From a virus: DNA of 64,000 nucleotides. The stretch is from positions 64,001 through 128,000 of the IMG/VR virus record IMGVR_UViG_3300026488_000013; one strand, given 5' to 3'. The notes under the pieces were generated by a model, which worked only from the letters and a program-made list of their open reading frames with translations, was not told the DNA's origin and did not search any database. Below are positions 17,426 through 49,416 of this stretch, one piece after another; the first letter of the stretch is position 1; each line of letters begins with the position of its first letter. A program made the position numbers and the translations under genes.

Positions 17426-19195
17426 TTAATCAGATATTATACTTTCCGTTACTATATCGTCTATTATCATTCTATCATTATTGGAATTATTTATTTTAAT
17501 ATTCATTTTTTCGGATTTATTAACATAAATACTCGATACGACTGATTTTATATTCGTTTTTATGAATTCGTTAATATTAATTTTAGAATTAACCTGAGAA
17601 TATATGTCTGTCAGATATTTAAGACTATTAATCATGCATCTAGACTTATTAATATTTTCAATTTCCAATAAATTTTTATTTCTTATTAAAGCACTATCTG
17701 GAATATTAGTATTTAAACTTATTTGTGAAACAACAGATTTCATTATTACCATTTCATCTAGCCCGGAAATTACATAAAATATATTAGTATAATCAATAAA
17801 GGGTATTATATAATATGGAACTTGTGTCAATATAACAGATATTCTATCGCCGATATAATTGGTAATTACACTAAATTTCTCGGAAATATTTAAAAACATA
17901 TTAATAAATGAATTTACATTATCATAATAAAGCTTTAAATTTTCATTGTTCGAATGTAATAAAAAATACCCGCTGTTTAACAGTGATATAAATATTGAGT
18001 AGAATATATCTGCCAGTAGCGACGCCTTGTCATCGTCTGAATATATACTTGATTGGAGAATATTTCTTATCTTTCCTATAAACTCTGGGTATTGTTGCAA
18101 TAAATAGTTTTCAACATATTCTAATGGAACATTTTCTTCATTTGTTTTTGTTATATTTTTATAAACATATTTGTTCAATAAATCTCTAAGCTCTCCATAC
18201 TTTTTGTCATAGAGTTCGGAATACTTATACTCTTTATGCCCATTTTGTAGCAGGTCAACTATATATTCAAAAGTTTCATAGTCTTGTTCTAAATATGTAT
18301 TTAATTCCAAGGCAGATATATACTTGGAATATGTAGAATTTTTATTGTCATAAATATAGTATACGGAACCAAAATATTTTAGCAATAAGTATTCTATTAT
18401 TAAGGGAATATCTTGGATAAAAATATAATACTTTGTATTGAAGTCGAATTTAGAGGCAATAGATGGGGTTAAGTTTATTTCGATTTTTAAATTTTTGAAT
18501 TTGGTTAGAAACAGAGCGGCACGCAGGAATTCGCTTAAACCCTCAATAATGGCTCTTTTTCCATGAATATATAAAATATTGGTTTTATAAGGAAACACAA
18601 ATTTATCCAAATTATTTAAAATATCTTCTTTAGTTAGCATTAGATTAGGAATTTTCTCTTTAACATAATCAAAATCTAAATATTTTAAATCGTCCACCGG
18701 ATTTGTTAAATAATTTATAAAAAAATAAACATCGTTTTTATTTTTATCATACACAATTTCAAGCTCGCCTATTGAAACCATATTTTCAAGTCTTAGAATG
18801 TTAGTAAGAACCATTATATCATTAACTGATGCCCGCCACCTTTTTATTAAACCAATATTATAAAAAAGCAACTTTATTTCTTCTATAGTCAATTTCTTAA
18901 CTTTTTCCTCAGGTATCCCAAATAAATCTATGATTTTAGTATATAAATCTAAATACTCTTCATCCTTAATATCCAGGTTTAAAAAACTTCTAACAAAGTA
19001 TGTTAATGGGATAGGGATTTCATTATATGTTTTTTCTAAATGCTGGTTAAAAATAATATCGAATAAAATTTCTTTTAAATTTTTATTTTTTATAGTGTTT
19101 TCTTCGTCCAAATAAGATGTTCTAAATTGGTCAGTTATATTAGAATAATAGGTGTGTAATTTTTCTAAAAAAAGTTTTAATTTATTTCTATCCAT
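17426..19195 (-). CDS. Hypothetical protein, probable baseplate wedge component
   Basis: 589-aa ORF within the baseplate cluster. Confidence 0.45.
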   Translation of the reverse strand: MDRNKLKLFLEKLHTYYSNITDQFRTSYLDEENTIKNKNLKEILFDIIFNQHLEKTYNEIPIPLTYFVRSFLNLDIKDEEYLDLYTKIIDLFGIPEEKVKKLTIEEIKLLFYNIGLIKRWRASVNDIMVLTNILRLENMVSIGELEIVYDKNKNDVYFFINYLTNPVDDLKYLDFDYVKEKIPNLMLTKEDILNNLDKFVFPYKTNILYIHGKRAIIEGLSEFLRAALFLTKFKNLKIEINLTPSIASKFDFNTKYYIFIQDIPLIIEYLLLKYFGSVYYIYDNKNSTYSKYISALELNTYLEQDYETFEYIVDLLQNGHKEYKYSELYDKKYGELRDLLNKYVYKNITKTNEENVPLEYVENYLLQQYPEFIGKIRNILQSSIYSDDDKASLLADIFYSIFISLLNSGYFLLHSNNENLKLYYDNVNSFINMFLNISEKFSVITNYIGDRISVILTQVPYYIIPFIDYTNIFYVISGLDEMVIMKSVVSQISLNTNIPDSALIRNKNLLEIENINKSRCMINSLKYLTDIYSQVNSKININEFIKTNIKSVVSSIYVNKSEKMNIKINNSNNDRMIIDDIVTESIISD

Positions 19196-33593: not shown

Positions 33594-35213
33594 TTAAAGT
33601 TCTGCGTCTGCGTAAATATTTATACCATATATGTTACTAGAATCACTCGGATTAAAAATAACGGCATTGGGTGATATTTCGATAGGCATGAACGCATATC
33701 TCGTTATATCTTCTATAATTTTTACAGATGGTGTCACTCTTTTAACAATTTTCCAGTTATGAATTCTTCTATATACGTTGCCATTATCACCACTACTTCT
33801 TACTATTTCGTAATATCTCATGCATCTTAACAATTGAATATCATAGGGAATTCTTTCAAATTCAGTAGCAAACCATCCTTCTTCTAACTGAACTCTATGT
33901 ATCGCAATATAATCTCCCGCCTGCAATCTTACACCGCCAGATACACTAAATTTCTCTCCTAAATACGTTCCTTCATCTGATACTAAATAATCCGCCACAT
34001 CCGTCATTCCAACAATAACTAATTCAAAACCTAAGTTGTTATCGTTATTAACTGCTGAATTGGTGAACTCTAACAAATTGAATGTAACAGATATTCTTTG
34101 AACAGCATTAGGTGTATCGTAGTTAAATATTCTGATTTGAGATTCTACATTATTAGGGTCAGTTTTGTTTATTAGTGCAACACTATATATGCCCGCTCGA
34201 GTTGACATAAAATCAAATGATAGAGTTAACTTAGACTTCTTCTTGAAATAGGGATAAAGATGTCGTCCTTCAAATCTATACACAAACGTTTTTGCAAATT
34301 CAGAACTATAATCTGGTGTTTTCAAAATTTTATATGTAGCGCCTGTTGCATCTTGAGGTTGAGACTCATACATAAGAGTTAGGACTTCTTCGTCGGTTAA
34401 GGCTCGGTTGAAAATGCGGACTTGGTCAATTAATCCTATAAAAAACCATTGCGAATAGCCGATATGTAATTTATTCTTATGGTCTAGTGTTTTATTATAA
34501 CCATTTTGAGAAAAAACTTTTTTGCTATTTTTAAAAATGGTTACAGAATTAGGCCCAATTGAAATAGATAGATGTATCCATTTACCAATCCAATCTTCTA
34601 CTTTTTCCGAGTATACAACTGTGCCATTGGTTCCATATTGAAAATCTACAGAGCCGTCGAAGAAAGAAACTCGAAAAGTTGTGTTTTGCTCACAGTCTCC
34701 TGTAGTAAATAAACCCTGTCTACTATTTGTATTTGACTGGGAATTGTAAAGCCACATAGAAATTGTAAAAACATTGTTGTTAGGTAGAGGTATATTGTTT
34801 ACAATTATTTTGCTATTTCCATCAAACTTCGCAGCTTGCTCAAACATACCTACATCATACTGCTCTGTTCCATACCATGTTCCATTATACTTTCCAGATA
34901 AATCATTTGCATTTCCATCAAAAGTATATGTTGCTATACAAGAACCATCTCCAAATATATCTAAAGTATTCGCTTTAGAACCAAAATTCGGAACAAAACC
35001 TTTTATTAATAATGCATTTTTTGGGTGGTATGAATACCATCTGTCGGCGGTGTATTTTCCTTCAGCGACTATATTATGTATAATGCCCCTTTGCCATATT
35101 TGAAAATCACCATTAATTATCAAATTCTTAAAATTTTTTAAGTTTGATTGTATATATGGGTGGGCATTCAAACCGTTATTATGTTCTTCTGTTAATATCT
35201 TTTTTCTACTCAT
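33594..35213 (-). CDS. Tail fibre protein with inserted LamG domain
   Basis: HNNGLNAHP; KNLIINGDFQIWQRG..YTADRW; LamG (DIFGDGSCIATYTFDGNAND...IDQVRIFNRALT); VQLEEG..ATEFE..QLLRCMRYYE. Confidence 0.85.
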   Translation of the reverse strand: MSRKKILTEEHNNGLNAHPYIQSNLKNFKNLIINGDFQIWQRGIIHNIVAEGKYTADRWYSYHPKNALLIKGFVPNFGSKANTLDIFGDGSCIATYTFDGNANDLSGKYNGTWYGTEQYDVGMFEQAAKFDGNSKIIVNNIPLPNNNVFTISMWLYNSQSNTNSRQGLFTTGDCEQNTTFRVSFFDGSVDFQYGTNGTVVYSEKVEDWIGKWIHLSISIGPNSVTIFKNSKKVFSQNGYNKTLDHKNKLHIGYSQWFFIGLIDQVRIFNRALTDEEVLTLMYESQPQDATGATYKILKTPDYSSEFAKTFVYRFEGRHLYPYFKKKSKLTLSFDFMSTRAGIYSVALINKTDPNNVESQIRIFNYDTPNAVQRISVTFNLLEFTNSAVNNDNNLGFELVIVGMTDVADYLVSDEGTYLGEKFSVSGGVRLQAGDYIAIHRVQLEEGWFATEFERIPYDIQLLRCMRYYEIVRSSGDNGNVYRRIHNWKIVKRVTPSVKIIEDITRYAFMPIEISPNAVIFNPSDSSNIYGINIYADAEL

Positions 35214-35238
35214 AATATCTACCTCAAAAACGAGAATA

Positions 35239-35410
35239 ATGACTTTCTCCTCTCACTTTAGTGAGGGGCTTCCTGCTTCATCGTGGGCTAAGCCCACTTC
35301 ATGGGTAGGGCAGACTTTAAGGGGTCTGTCATCCCCTTTAAAAAGACTTAAGCTCTGTAGGTTGCGGGGGATGATTTCCCCCGCAGTTATTCCCCTTCAT
35401 AGCTTAAACC
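35239..35410 (-). mobile_element. IS200/IS605-family right end / TnpB omegaRNA-like structured RNA (no tnpB adjacent)
   Basis: GC-rich island with hairpins at 35363-35385, 35319-35338, 35283-35297 and 35249-35268. The minus strand ends GATGAAGCAGGAAGCCCCTCACTAAAGTGAGAGGAGAAAGTCAT, matching the GAAGCAGGAAGCCCC-hairpin-GTCA pattern of IS605/IS1341 right ends. Confidence 0.7.
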
Positions 35411-36439
35411 TCAAACTTCCAAAATATCGGGCTGTTCCATTAACAATTCCTCCAAAGATAACCCTAGTAAAGATGCATATACCTCTAAATCTTCGCCTTT
35501 AATGGAATCTATTAGTTCCAAATAACTCTGAGAAGGAATTAATTTAAATTCCTCTTCTTTTAAATTTTGCTTTTTACCTCTTTTATAGAAGCGTTCAAAT
35601 TTTAACCTTCTTTTGATTTTTTTGGAAATCCACTTTTCTATTGCATACTTATGAATTTTTAAAGGATTCTTTTCAAATACTTCTTCGACAATATAATCAA
35701 CTTCTTCTGGTTTTATATCATTTATGTGTTTGGGTAGGAAATCCTCTATAAGAAAACTGCCGACCTCTTCCTCGTGTTGAGACTCCTTTTTATCTCCTGG
35801 CGTTCTAAAAGCAAAATCTCTATTCAGAATATGTAGCAACTCGTGAAATAAAGTCCAGATTTGTCTCGCTTTGCTTTCTCCACCGTTAATAAAAATGAAA
35901 TTTTTAGTAGCTAAACCGCTAATTGTAGCCCCGTAAAAATAAAATATAAAAATATTTCTTTTTGCTAAAAACTGCTCTAAAGCTTCTAAATTGATGCTAC
36001 TATTTATTTCCAATCTAACTTCGGTTAAAAAAGCTTCAAGTTTGCCTTTCCATAAGTTTTTTAGGAATTCTAATTCAGGTTCTTTTGCAAAATTCTCACT
36101 GAAAGTTTCTTGGATAGCAACAGCTTTTTTGATTAACAAAATATTATTTCTTATAAATTTCCGACTCTGTTTTCCCCGGGGGGCACGGGCACTAAATAAT
36201 TTCTCTTTGAACAAATAAGCTGGAAATTCTACATAACTTTCCAAGGCTTCTAATACTCCCCATTTGTATTTTTCTATTTCTTTTTTTAAGAGTCTAATAT
36301 CTTGTATCTGAAAAACATGTTCTAAAATTTGTTTTTTAGGTATTTTGAGATATTTATCAACATTATTTAGATATTCCCGGCACGTCTCGTAAATTTCATT
36401 GATTTTTGCTTCATAAGATTGCACTGTGAATTTCCCCAT
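35411..36439 (-). CDS. ImmA/IrrE-family (Peptidase M78) zinc metallopeptidase
   Basis: ISGLA..FIFING.ES.ARQIWTLFHELLH (HExxH) followed by HEEEV..F; interrupts the tail-fibre gene cluster. Confidence 0.8.
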   Translation of the reverse strand: MGKFTVQSYEAKINEIYETCREYLNNVDKYLKIPKKQILEHVFQIQDIRLLKKEIEKYKWGVLEALESYVEFPAYLFKEKLFSARAPRGKQSRKFIRNNILLIKKAVAIQETFSENFAKEPELEFLKNLWKGKLEAFLTEVRLEINSSINLEALEQFLAKRNIFIFYFYGATISGLATKNFIFINGGESKARQIWTLFHELLHILNRDFAFRTPGDKKESQHEEEVGSFLIEDFLPKHINDIKPEEVDYIVEEVFEKNPLKIHKYAIEKWISKKIKRRLKFERFYKRGKKQNLKEEEFKLIPSQSYLELIDSIKGEDLEVYASLLGLSLEELLMEQPDILEV

Positions 36440-36588
36440 TAATTCTAATGTTTTACTAATACTAGTTTGAATTTCAAGGTTATAGATAAAGTATTGCTAC
36501 AAGTAATATTTGTTTCTTTATGTGATTCTTATTTTTGGAAACCTTTCCTTTAAAATGCCTGTTTTTCAGTTAAAGAAAAAAAGAAAAA

Positions 36589-37383
36589 TTACGGACGGGG
36601 AATTTTATCGAATTCAGATTTTAGCAACGTGGGTATATCCTTATATTGTTCTATCAATTCTTCAACATTGGATACCTTTAATTCATCTACTTGTTTTTCA
36701 AGTTGCTCTTCTACTTCCCAGATTTTGTTTATCCACATTATTAATTGACCTATGAATCCTAAGCGAGGAACTTTAGACAGTATAAAATCTATGGACTCTT
36801 GAGGTATTCCGTAAGATTGTAAAAATTTTTTAATGTCGTTAAGAGTAAGTTCTCCTGCAAAATATTTAGCTGCCGCTCCTTTTACATCTTCTAATGTAAT
36901 AGGAAGTTTAATATCATTTATTTGTTGTAGAGTAGTTATTAATGCATTTGATGCTTCATCGATTTTTCCTGAGATAGAATTTTTCAAAGTCTCCAAATCC
37001 CTGGCCGAATTCACATCATCCTTTAACTCTTGCATTAGATTTCCAAATTGTTTTAAAGCAGTTACAATAATGTCAAAACCTTGTGCAATAGTTCCTGATA
37101 CAGTTGTATATGATAATGCTTTCATAAGTTCATATTTAATTTCAACCTCAATTTTATCGAGTTCGGCTATAAGGTCGGCCAGGTTTTCATTATAATGCTG
37201 CTTAATTGTCTTCTCGATATATTCCTTCTCAGTGTACCAATCCATTGTATCCTTTATGTATTGTTTTACGGTATTAATGTCTCTTAACTCAGGTAATAAC
37301 TTGGTTTTTTTTGTCATAGGGTCATGATAATAAATATTTAAATCTGTATATACATTTTTACCTATTTTGATAAAAACTCTCAT
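36589..37383 (-). CDS. Tail fibre-associated chaperone-like protein
   Basis: Follows the fibre gene; helical; RBS AGGAGG. Confidence 0.5.
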   Translation of the reverse strand: MRVFIKIGKNVYTDLNIYYHDPMTKKTKLLPELRDINTVKQYIKDTMDWYTEKEYIEKTIKQHYNENLADLIAELDKIEVEIKYELMKALSYTTVSGTIAQGFDIIVTALKQFGNLMQELKDDVNSARDLETLKNSISGKIDEASNALITTLQQINDIKLPITLEDVKGAAAKYFAGELTLNDIKKFLQSYGIPQESIDFILSKVPRLGFIGQLIMWINKIWEVEEQLEKQVDELKVSNVEELIEQYKDIPTLLKSEFDKIPRP

Positions 37384-48027: not shown

Positions 48028-49416
48028 TTAAGCAAAAGCCAACACCAAATAATCTCTCCATTCATTTGGAATATCTATTCTATAACGGAGTGGCTTCATT
48101 TTCATAAAATCTTCATCGTCTAACCATAAATCATATGTCGCTTCTATTCCGTATTTTTCATTTATCACCAATAATTTTTGCGAGGGTCTTGTTAACCATC
48201 CTTTTGAATACGAATATTCATCTACACCTTTTAAAGTTCCATTCATAATTATAAATCCTGTCCCATCATATAGCATAGCCGGAACATGGAAATGTCCTAC
48301 AACATAATATGTCATTGGTATGTTCGGTTGTTTTACATTTGGAAAGAAATTAATATTTTGCTTATTTCCAAAATCACGCCGCAATCCATAGAAAGGAATA
48401 CCACTCCAAGATTTAATCTCGTCGCCATGAGAAAAACAAAATCTAAAACCTAATATATCTTTAAAAATAAATGGAGACTTGGTTATTTCCCATTTTATGT
48501 TTTCATATTTTTGAGTTAATAATGCAGCTATTTGATATGTGATATAATCAAAAGAATTAAATCTTTTCTTATATTCCTTCTTCTTTGTTATCCTTCCATG
48601 ATTTCCTACCACTGTAAAAACATTTACCTCGTTAAACACTTTTGACAGTTCTATTAAAAGGGCCGCAATTAAATAAGCAGCCAAACCTATTTGCTCGGTA
48701 ATCGTTAAATCAACATTTTTAATCAATTCATCATGTATTATTCCCGATACCATATCCCCGCCCAACCAAACATTTATTTTTCTAATTCCATCATTACATT
48801 CATATAATTTTTTTATCTTTACAACTTTCTCAAATATTTTCTCAACTCTTCTTGTAGCAACATTTAAATCAAATTTATTAACATATCCTATTTCTTCAGG
48901 TTCTACTATTTCTAATATATGCCAATCAGATAAAAGCAATAAAAATTCCCTCTTCAATTTATTTTTATCTTCAAAATTTATTTTTTCTCTGTCAGAATAA
49001 TTTATTTCAAATTTTATTTCATTTAAACTATATTTTAAAAATTCGATTAAAATTTCGTCAATTAATTTTTTATCATTTTTGTTTTTCTCATCGATTAATT
49101 TATTATAAATTTCTTTTTTTAAATTTTTTACATTTTCATTTTTCAATAAAAATTTTAAAAACTCCTCAAAACATTTTTCGTTCAACAAAATTTGTTTCAA
49201 AATTTTATTTAATTTTCTGGCTTTATATTCTCTGATTAAATAATTACTCTGAATTCTTTTTCTACCAGGAATTAATTTTTCAATTATCTCTTTTGAATAA
49301 TTTTTTGTTTTAATTTTATTTATTATTTCTAAAATAATTTCTTCCAATAAATTAATCATTTCATCATTAATTTTTAAATTGTAATTTTTTAAACATTTTA
49401 AAATTATTTCTTTCAT
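48028..49416 (-). CDS. Calcineurin-like metallophosphoesterase/nuclease
   Basis: SDWH, GGDMVSG, GNHGR, HGD, GHFH. Confidence 0.88.
   Translation of the reverse strand: MKEIILKCLKNYNLKINDEMINLLEEIILEIINKIKTKNYSKEIIEKLIPGRKRIQSNYLIREYKARKLNKILKQILLNEKCFEEFLKFLLKNENVKNLKKEIYNKLIDEKNKNDKKLIDEILIEFLKYSLNEIKFEINYSDREKINFEDKNKLKREFLLLLSDWHILEIVEPEEIGYVNKFDLNVATRRVEKIFEKVVKIKKLYECNDGIRKINVWLGGDMVSGIIHDELIKNVDLTITEQIGLAAYLIAALLIELSKVFNEVNVFTVVGNHGRITKKKEYKKRFNSFDYITYQIAALLTQKYENIKWEITKSPFIFKDILGFRFCFSHGDEIKSWSGIPFYGLRRDFGNKQNINFFPNVKQPNIPMTYYVVGHFHVPAMLYDGTGFIIMNGTLKGVDEYSYSKGWLTRPSQKLLVINEKYGIEATYDLWLDDEDFMKMKPLRYRIDIPNEWRDYLVLAFA

Follow-up and report, generated by a model that had tools for sequence, protein, structure and literature searches.

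TnpB has a part in the retention and homing of transposable elements, in which it cleaves alleles that lack the insertion. Its guide, the omegaRNA, is reportedly processed by TnpB itself from the nuclease's own mRNA. The omegaRNAs that are often found encoded in the elements known as PATEs depend on a TnpB supplied in trans (Meers et al. 2023, 10.1101/2023.03.14.532601), so gene-less elements that encode an omegaRNA are of a kind already described. Guide RNAs have also been reported for TldRs, nuclease-dead TnpB proteins that act as repressors (Wiegand et al., 10.1101/2023.11.30.569447).

The DNA analysed here (the window, 64,000 nucleotides) comprises bases 64001-128000 of a 167-kb IMG/VR phage record that is approximately 60% complete and has a GC content of 28%; coordinates are those of the window unless marked as genome coordinates. 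A structured GC-rich element of approximately 165 nt (copy A) occupies 35239-35403 on the minus strand, directly 3′ of the stop codon (35411-35413) of a peptidase gene, and its 3′ edge reads ...GTCAT at 35239. Copy A has approximately 49% GC, compared with 28% for the genome, and a minimum free energy of -70.4 kcal/mol, compared with -53.2 kcal/mol for shuffled sequences, a value that none of 200 shuffles equalled. The structured element that the preliminary description placed right after the peptidase stop is thus real (35239-35403, z = -4.0 versus shuffles). Rfam release 15 gave no match at gathering scores over the whole window, and nothing within 35239-35403 at E values up to 10. We consider that copy A is very probably the solo right end of an IS200/IS605 TnpB-type insertion sequence, with a shortened omegaRNA scaffold, and that it lies beside the peptidase gene by accident.

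The scaffold of copy A (35239..35403, minus strand; 202 bits with R1, a covariance model built from the three phage copies A, B and C only) has four hairpins, all on the minus strand. Hairpin 1 (35364..35384), an 8-bp GC stem with a 5-nt loop, corresponds to helix 2 of the alignment, in which all eight pairs have changes on both sides; its counterpart within tnpB is a homologous stem that precedes the segment coding for the zinc ribbon (TNB), and this counterpart can be seen in the tnpB ORFs of loci L059 and L115. Hairpin 2 (35303..35336; helices 5 and 6) has the core CAGAC-CCCUUAAA-GUCUG, which shows no differences among the three phage copies, and outer GGG/CCC pairs that lengthen the stem. 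Hairpin 3 (GUGGGC-UUA-GCCCAC, 35283..35297; helix 7, with changes on both sides in four of six pairs) is a relic of the C-terminal codons of tnpB (..W-A-L-P-T-M-K, with the coding register taken from L059), and contains an in-frame TAG in copy A. The terminal hairpin (35249..35268; helix 8, six of eight pairs changed on both sides) has one C-A mismatch in copy A, where a conserved stem position shows a G-to-A change. The 3′ adaptor and right-end boundary follow at 35239..35248 and read AGAAAGUCAU in copy A versus AGGAGGUCAC in the family consensus, a difference at two conserved positions; this part was delimited by the divergence of flanks after TCAC. The next 20 nt (35219..35238, minus strand, read from the sequence) are the guide-equivalent flank. 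They overlap the GAGGT ribosome-binding site of a tail-fibre-like gene whose ATG lies at 35213, and a guide position over this site had been called correctly (35238-35219 reaches GAGGT).

Two further features of copy A were considered. A long-range helix pairing ACAGAGCUU with AAGC.., proposed by RNAalifold from three sequences, was rejected, as the linker is not conserved in bacterial copies and helix 4 is just 75% paired. A 20-codon ORF (35339-35401, minus strand) starts at the would-be ATG of a partner gene, 7 nt past GAGGT, and runs through hairpin 1, and its translation would unfold the 5′ stem; it is probably incidental, since copies B and C have no counterpart.

The pairing was assessed over 36 family members, in an alignment that was fitted to the model and so favours the structure. 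Paired cells amounted to 90.8%, versus 45-53% when the partner was slid, and 27 pairs were changed on both sides, versus 6-16 in the slid controls; 0 of 500 shuffles gave pair statistics as high as those observed. As far as an alignment can tell, this supports a conserved secondary structure of four stems with covariation. The right-end boundary is sharp: in more than 10 relatives, the flanks are unrelated directly past ..TCAC (TCAT in copy A). At the other end, (T)TTAC directly precedes the left end in 13 of 14 elements.

The phage contig holds three copies of the scaffold element, all with different flanks. Copy B (genome 155-418) is 86% identical to copy A over the part that aligns; copy C (genome 10627-10838) is 74% identical and has an additional 24-nt hairpin, as well as a relic of 26 aa from the C-terminus of tnpB. 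In a short-sequence tree, copy A pairs with copy B (support 87/85) and copy C falls among the bacterial gene-less copies without a resolved placement, while the phage, bacterial gene-less and tnpB-linked scaffolds together form one well-supported clade. Of the 44 positions that at least 85% of 28 bacterial members have in common, copy B differs at two, copy A at five and copy C at eight. Three of the changes in copy A are G-to-A or C-to-T transitions, located in the terminal stem and the 3′ adaptor, and six of the eight in copy C lie within the 3′ adaptor and the right-end boundary. Copy B is a complete gene-less element, and is the sole match when the 167-kb contig is searched with a left-end profile; copy A has no left end anywhere in the contig by this profile, and neither a promoter-like nor a terminator-like site adjoins it. 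The element is non-autonomous, as had been proposed.

Outside the phage, R1 matched 36 of 148 genomes of the order to which an Aquificaceae metagenome-assembled genome (MAG) belongs, with 17, 7 and 6 copies in the richest genomes. An 18-mer in the core of hairpin 2, invariant in copies A, B and C, retrieved true relatives in the Aquificaceae MAG (121 bits with R1) and in a metagenome contig (113 bits). Across five genomes that were checked, at least 10 R1 matches lie at or overlap the 3′ ends of ORFs with a TNB domain, for example in G147:C92, where the RNA spans 48985-49151 and the TNB domain 49149-49325. Three of these ORFs were examined and are TnpB proteins of 417-436 aa with PF07282 (TNB) and PF01385 (OrfB_IS605). 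A Y1 tnpA is present in three of five Aquificales genomes with the family, and in one of them (G090:C61) Y1 tnpA, tnpB and the RNA lie at one locus in the order tnpA-tnpB-RNA. These matches to tnpB ends outside the phage are the decisive evidence for the link to TnpB. The reading of the element as an omegaRNA and IS605 right end, with its right boundary at ..GTCAT, was therefore correct, because R1 matches sit on tnpB 3′ ends, in one case with a Y1 tnpA, and the flanks of more than 10 relatives diverge at the equivalent ..TCAC. Relatives at the ends of insertion sequences favour this reading even though Rfam returned nothing. A housekeeping RNA (such as an SRP RNA upstream of dnaX) was ruled out because the family is multi-copy, patchy (36/148) and situated on tnpB ends. 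The copy in the Aquificaceae MAG (WFPT01000059.1, L045:4658-4960) is gene-less and lies between pdxA and a ferredoxin-like gene, with dnaX following. The home of the family is the thermophilic Aquificales and their phages.

The full form of the element consists of TTAC, a left-end hairpin, tnpB (preceded in some cases by tnpA), an omegaRNA overlapping the 3′ end of tnpB, and ..GGTCAC. In tnpB-bearing elements, this order reads TTTAC, left end (ACGCCAGAAAG, hairpin, GATGAATGGCG.CCGATAGGT), tnpB, scaffold ending in ..GGAGGTCAC, and flank. The top-scoring bacterial matches and phage copy B contain no ORF: TTTAC and the left-end hairpin are followed by a sigma-70-like promoter, a mini-omegaRNA and ..GGTCAC. 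The promoter-like site, TTGAyTTTTT...TATAAAAT, comes after the left end, and beyond it a short AT-rich linker joins the 5′ stem to the 3′ scaffold. Elements with and without tnpB have the left end in common, and the subterminal hairpins of left and right ends are alike. The gene-less forms are without the approximately 150 nt, coding for the zinc ribbon, that separate the 5′ stem from the 3′ scaffold, and have thus retained the RNA-forming parts and dropped the part needed for protein only; relic C-terminal codons of tnpB nevertheless persist in the scaffolds. The bacterial copies inspected have unrelated genes or tnpB ends as neighbours.

The preliminary description had reported neither tnpA nor tnpB, which is true within the window, but the same contig carries a tnpB outside it, at genome 166634-167050, interrupted by the end of the contig (TNB domain, E = 8e-22). 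The 3′ end of this gene gives the best non-self match of R1 in the contig, in register and aligned end to end with the same ..GTCAT stop (14.6 bits, E = 0.016); as a link between the element and TnpB, this match is no more than a weak hint. The TnpB of the phage is of a distant type, and across 93 aligned residues its C-terminal part shares 34% identity with a cognate-type TnpB. We found no Y1 tnpA and no second TnpB core on the phage contig (approximately 60% complete). On an unrelated 63-kb viral contig (IMGVR_UViG_3300026512_000011, L115), a 412-aa ORF (L115:1699-2979), presumed to be tnpB, has a scaffold of exactly this type at its 3′ end (68 bits) with a terminal hairpin nearly identical to those of copies A and B. 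As this contig pairs a presumed tnpB with the same type of scaffold, the cognate nucleases of the family may travel on phages. The element around the phage's own tnpB (genome 166228-167050, L007:1229-2051, minus strand) has a right end, ..GTCAT, that abuts a 128-aa ORF matching the middle of a ribonucleotide reductase large subunit (phrog_84 positions 427-522, E = 6e-16). The element may sit inside a split ribonucleotide reductase gene, either in the manner of an IStron or beside an intein, with the upstream part of the gene off the contig.

Searches for related loci of the tnpB fragment in IMG/VR returned none, INPHARED contained no BLASTN match to either the locus or the tnpB end, and exact-motif scans of IMG/VR with three phage-derived motifs produced chance matches within coding regions only. 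Across the motif scans, the INPHARED comparison and the related-locus searches, neither an insert-free allele nor a close relative of the phage was found. The proposed search for other copies and empty sites thus yielded two more copies in the contig but no empty-site allele, because the relatives of the tail-fibre gene are too distant and share no common gene order; they reach at most 40% identity over a long stretch, and up to 61% over segments of approximately 30 residues only. The tail-fibre-like gene itself (33594..35213, minus strand; Laminin_G_3 domain, phrog_4492 tail fibre) lies directly downstream of copy A.

On the other side of copy A, the gene at 35411..36439 (minus strand) encodes a 342-aa ImmA/IrrE-type peptidase. 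Its match to Peptidase_M78 (PF06114) is weak and covers only approximately 33 residues, at 26 bits versus a cut-off of 22; it also matches phrog_87 (metallo-protease), and H199, E200 and H203 of the HExxH core are invariant across homologues. The protein is intact through its last residue. Each of its three homologues (62-69% identity) has, 10-18 nt downstream, a gene of approximately 185-192 aa (L020:1244-1822, L021:1270-1836 and L022:957-1511), and R1 gives only noise at these loci. The partner belongs to no Pfam or PADLOC family and is absent from the phage contig; PADLOC, run on both peptidase and partner, gave just a marginal capP match (E = 0.003). Judged by gene order, peptidase and partner constitute a putative two-gene module, uncharacterised to date, of which the phage has the peptidase half only. 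The L020 pair adjoins P2-type tail and baseplate genes. In L020, the ATG of the partner follows the peptidase stop codon and GAGGT; in the window, the scaffold starts at the same point.

These neighbours bear on two readings in which the peptidase and the RNA belong together. In one of the two readings offered by the preliminary description, 35239-36569 is a single non-autonomous cargo unit, mobilised in trans and defended by the cutting of insert-free siblings; for an element of IS605 type, TnpA would move it and TnpB would do the cutting. The peptidase gene does occupy the canonical place of tnpB, with the scaffold in its 3′ UTR, in keeping with the reported processing by TnpB of its own mRNA, and known PATEs have omegaRNAs that need TnpB in trans (10.1101/2023.03.14.532601). 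However, the sequence upstream of the peptidase gene contains neither a left end nor a TTAC junction, and 35239-36569 is therefore not a transposable unit. The left boundary suggested at 36569, with TTTAA as the target motif, fares no better: the left-end profile matches copy B only, and the family target is TTAC, with (T)TTAC as the 5′ flank. Moreover, the 3′ end of the peptidase gene, including the stop codon and GAGGT, matches scaffold-free homologues that run into the partner gene, which places the junction at the scaffold instead of at 36569; nor was a tnpA found on the contig. We regard a cargo transposon as highly improbable. A new functional pairing, in which the structured RNA is used by the ImmA/IrrE peptidase or regulates it, is scarcely credible. 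What speaks for it is adjacency and probable co-transcription in this one phage; the peptidase adjoins one of the three phage copies (copy A only), and the other two, as well as all bacterial copies inspected, have other neighbours. Copies B and C lie near genes unrelated to it, among them an HNH-type endonuclease, ORFs of unknown function and a putative virion structural protein. The preliminary description had named a failure of peptidase homologues to co-occur with the RNA as a refutation, and this is the outcome: the scaffold follows the peptidase at 0 of 3 loci, and all three homologues have the partner of approximately 190 aa instead.

Two further readings would give the scaffold a present function without the peptidase. 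A role in the tail-fibre mRNA, as an insulator, a processing site or a stable leader at the 5′ end, would explain why the stems of the scaffold are still intact, and why each of the three phage copies lies just upstream of a co-oriented gene, with a distance from right end to ribosome-binding site too short for a promoter. However, such co-orientation is expected by chance, because the contig is nearly single-stranded in gene orientation (100 of 116 large ORFs on the minus strand). The genes downstream of the three copies are not related to each other, bacterial versions of the RNA adjoin unrelated genes or tnpB ends, and no terminator-like site was detected from 35000 to 36800, all of which makes this reading very unlikely. 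A domesticated guide RNA for a TldR-like, nuclease-dead repressor of the tail-fibre or a host gene is exceedingly unlikely. Systems with separate guide RNAs are known, some of them on prophages (10.1101/2023.11.30.569447), and the complete gene-less copies have a strong predicted promoter of their own. Against this, the guide-equivalent sequences match only their own flanks in the contig, which have no TTAC 5′ motif, with no second TTAC-flanked target; no TldR-like gene was seen, the sole TNB match in the contig being the truncated tnpB; and the multi-copy distribution fits mobility.

The solo right end accounts for the locus without a role for the peptidase. Copy A is homologous to TnpB scaffolds, has the boundary of the family, is missing its left end and promoter, and has no link to the peptidase. 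In the simplest history, a deletion would have removed left end and promoter together with the partner gene, joining peptidase to scaffold, and the 5′ edge of copy A would have been fused to the ribosome-binding site and ATG position where the usual partner gene of the peptidase would begin. Such a copy would be unable to transpose, and would be transcribed only within a peptidase-to-tail-fibre transcript. As no promoter adjoins copy A, any RNA would come from transcripts starting at or before the peptidase gene, and a sigma-70-like candidate upstream of that gene (36442..36471, minus strand; 9/12 match to consensus) is the likely source, although promoter-like sites in the region are not enriched (7 versus 5.8 in shuffles). 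A cognate TnpB, supplied by the Aquificales host or by the unsequenced approximately 40% of the phage, could cut copy A from the transcript and load it, and the complex would then cut TTAC-flanked alleles without the insert.

Copy A is probably a solo scaffold that is decaying or that depends, at most, on factors acting in trans. Of its possible fates, we lean slightly towards an inert, decaying relic; that it is still usable as a guide in trans seems, from its sequence, rather unlikely, and reuse for something else, such as transcript stability, is distinctly improbable. The inert relic is rated above the active guide because of the missing promoter and the 3′ changes. Against a relic, all four stems are still foldable and only five of 44 conserved positions differ. 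A broader and improbable proposal is that gene-less mini-omegaRNAs, including copies without a left end such as copy A, are kept by the phage as RNA-only cassettes for homing or exclusion. A host or phage TnpB loaded with each guide would then cut co-infecting relatives that lack that insertion, and co-conversion would drag neighbouring genes into the rival, here the peptidase moron. If this were true, TnpB guides would match free-standing homing endonucleases in role while being programmable, and would do so in a phage that already abounds in introns and inteins.

Elsewhere in the contig, a second family of gene-less GC-rich elements is found on the plus strand at genome 9595-9950 (L006:9595-9950) and 18219-18581 (L008:4919-5281), the two copies being 85.5% identical over approximately 325 nt, with a 47-nt fragment at L008:8005-8053. 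In each copy, a stretch of approximately 135 nt shares 82-85% identity with the 3′ end of a tnpB locus in the Aquificaceae MAG (L052:1286-1421); by this similarity, the copies are putative orphan omegaRNA cassettes that belong to another lineage of TnpB. A further GC-rich non-coding island of approximately 230 nt (genome 160806-161033, L007:5807-6034, minus strand) resembles, by BLASTN, neither the other element families nor any of the loci compared. The 167 kb carry at least six TnpB-type right-end or omegaRNA modules: three of the present family, two of the second and one with tnpB. The idea of a protease paired with a guide-like RNA is thereby removed, and a documented case of orphan omegaRNA modules in a phage of Aquificales takes its place. 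The gene-less forms offer a natural minimal omegaRNA design from a thermophile, useful for shortening TnpB guides, and they bear on the question of whether phages compete with one another by means of TnpB guides. For annotation, the gain is a covariance model and definitions of the ends (TTAC ... TCAC) for a family absent from Rfam.

Set beside described systems, the family is closest to PATEs (10.1101/2023.03.14.532601). Like them, copy B and the best bacterial matches have a left and a right end and no ORF, the TnpB omegaRNA scaffold encoded by their right end depends on TnpB, and on TnpA, in trans, and many copies occur in genomes that also hold tnpB and tnpA elements. Unlike PATEs, the gene-less elements described here have an internal sigma-70-like promoter and a shortened scaffold without the zinc-ribbon coding stretch of approximately 150 nt, and they are found in a large phage of thermophiles. 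Copy A, with left end and promoter missing, is not even a PATE, just a solo right end. As in canonical TnpB omegaRNAs (ISDra2/IS608 group), the family scaffold overlaps the 3′ coding end of tnpB and stops at the right-end boundary, the guide is flanking DNA, and the left end is preceded by a TTAC-type motif, which the IS608 group also shows; the resemblance between the subterminal hairpins of left and right ends is also a feature of IS200/IS605 family elements. Copy A departs from the canonical arrangement in that a peptidase gene, not tnpB, lies upstream, and no Rfam family matches. TldR guide RNAs resemble the family in that a TnpB-type scaffold forms an RNA gene of its own, driven by a separate promoter and in some cases located on a prophage; the family differs in the lack of a TldR gene, in guides that match only their own flanks and in being multi-copy with transposon ends. 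The neighbouring ORF, finally, has the M78 HExxH core of ImmA/IrrE (Peptidase_M78) metallopeptidases, but its match is weak (26 bits, approximately 33 residues) and the approximately 190-aa partner of its homologues is missing.
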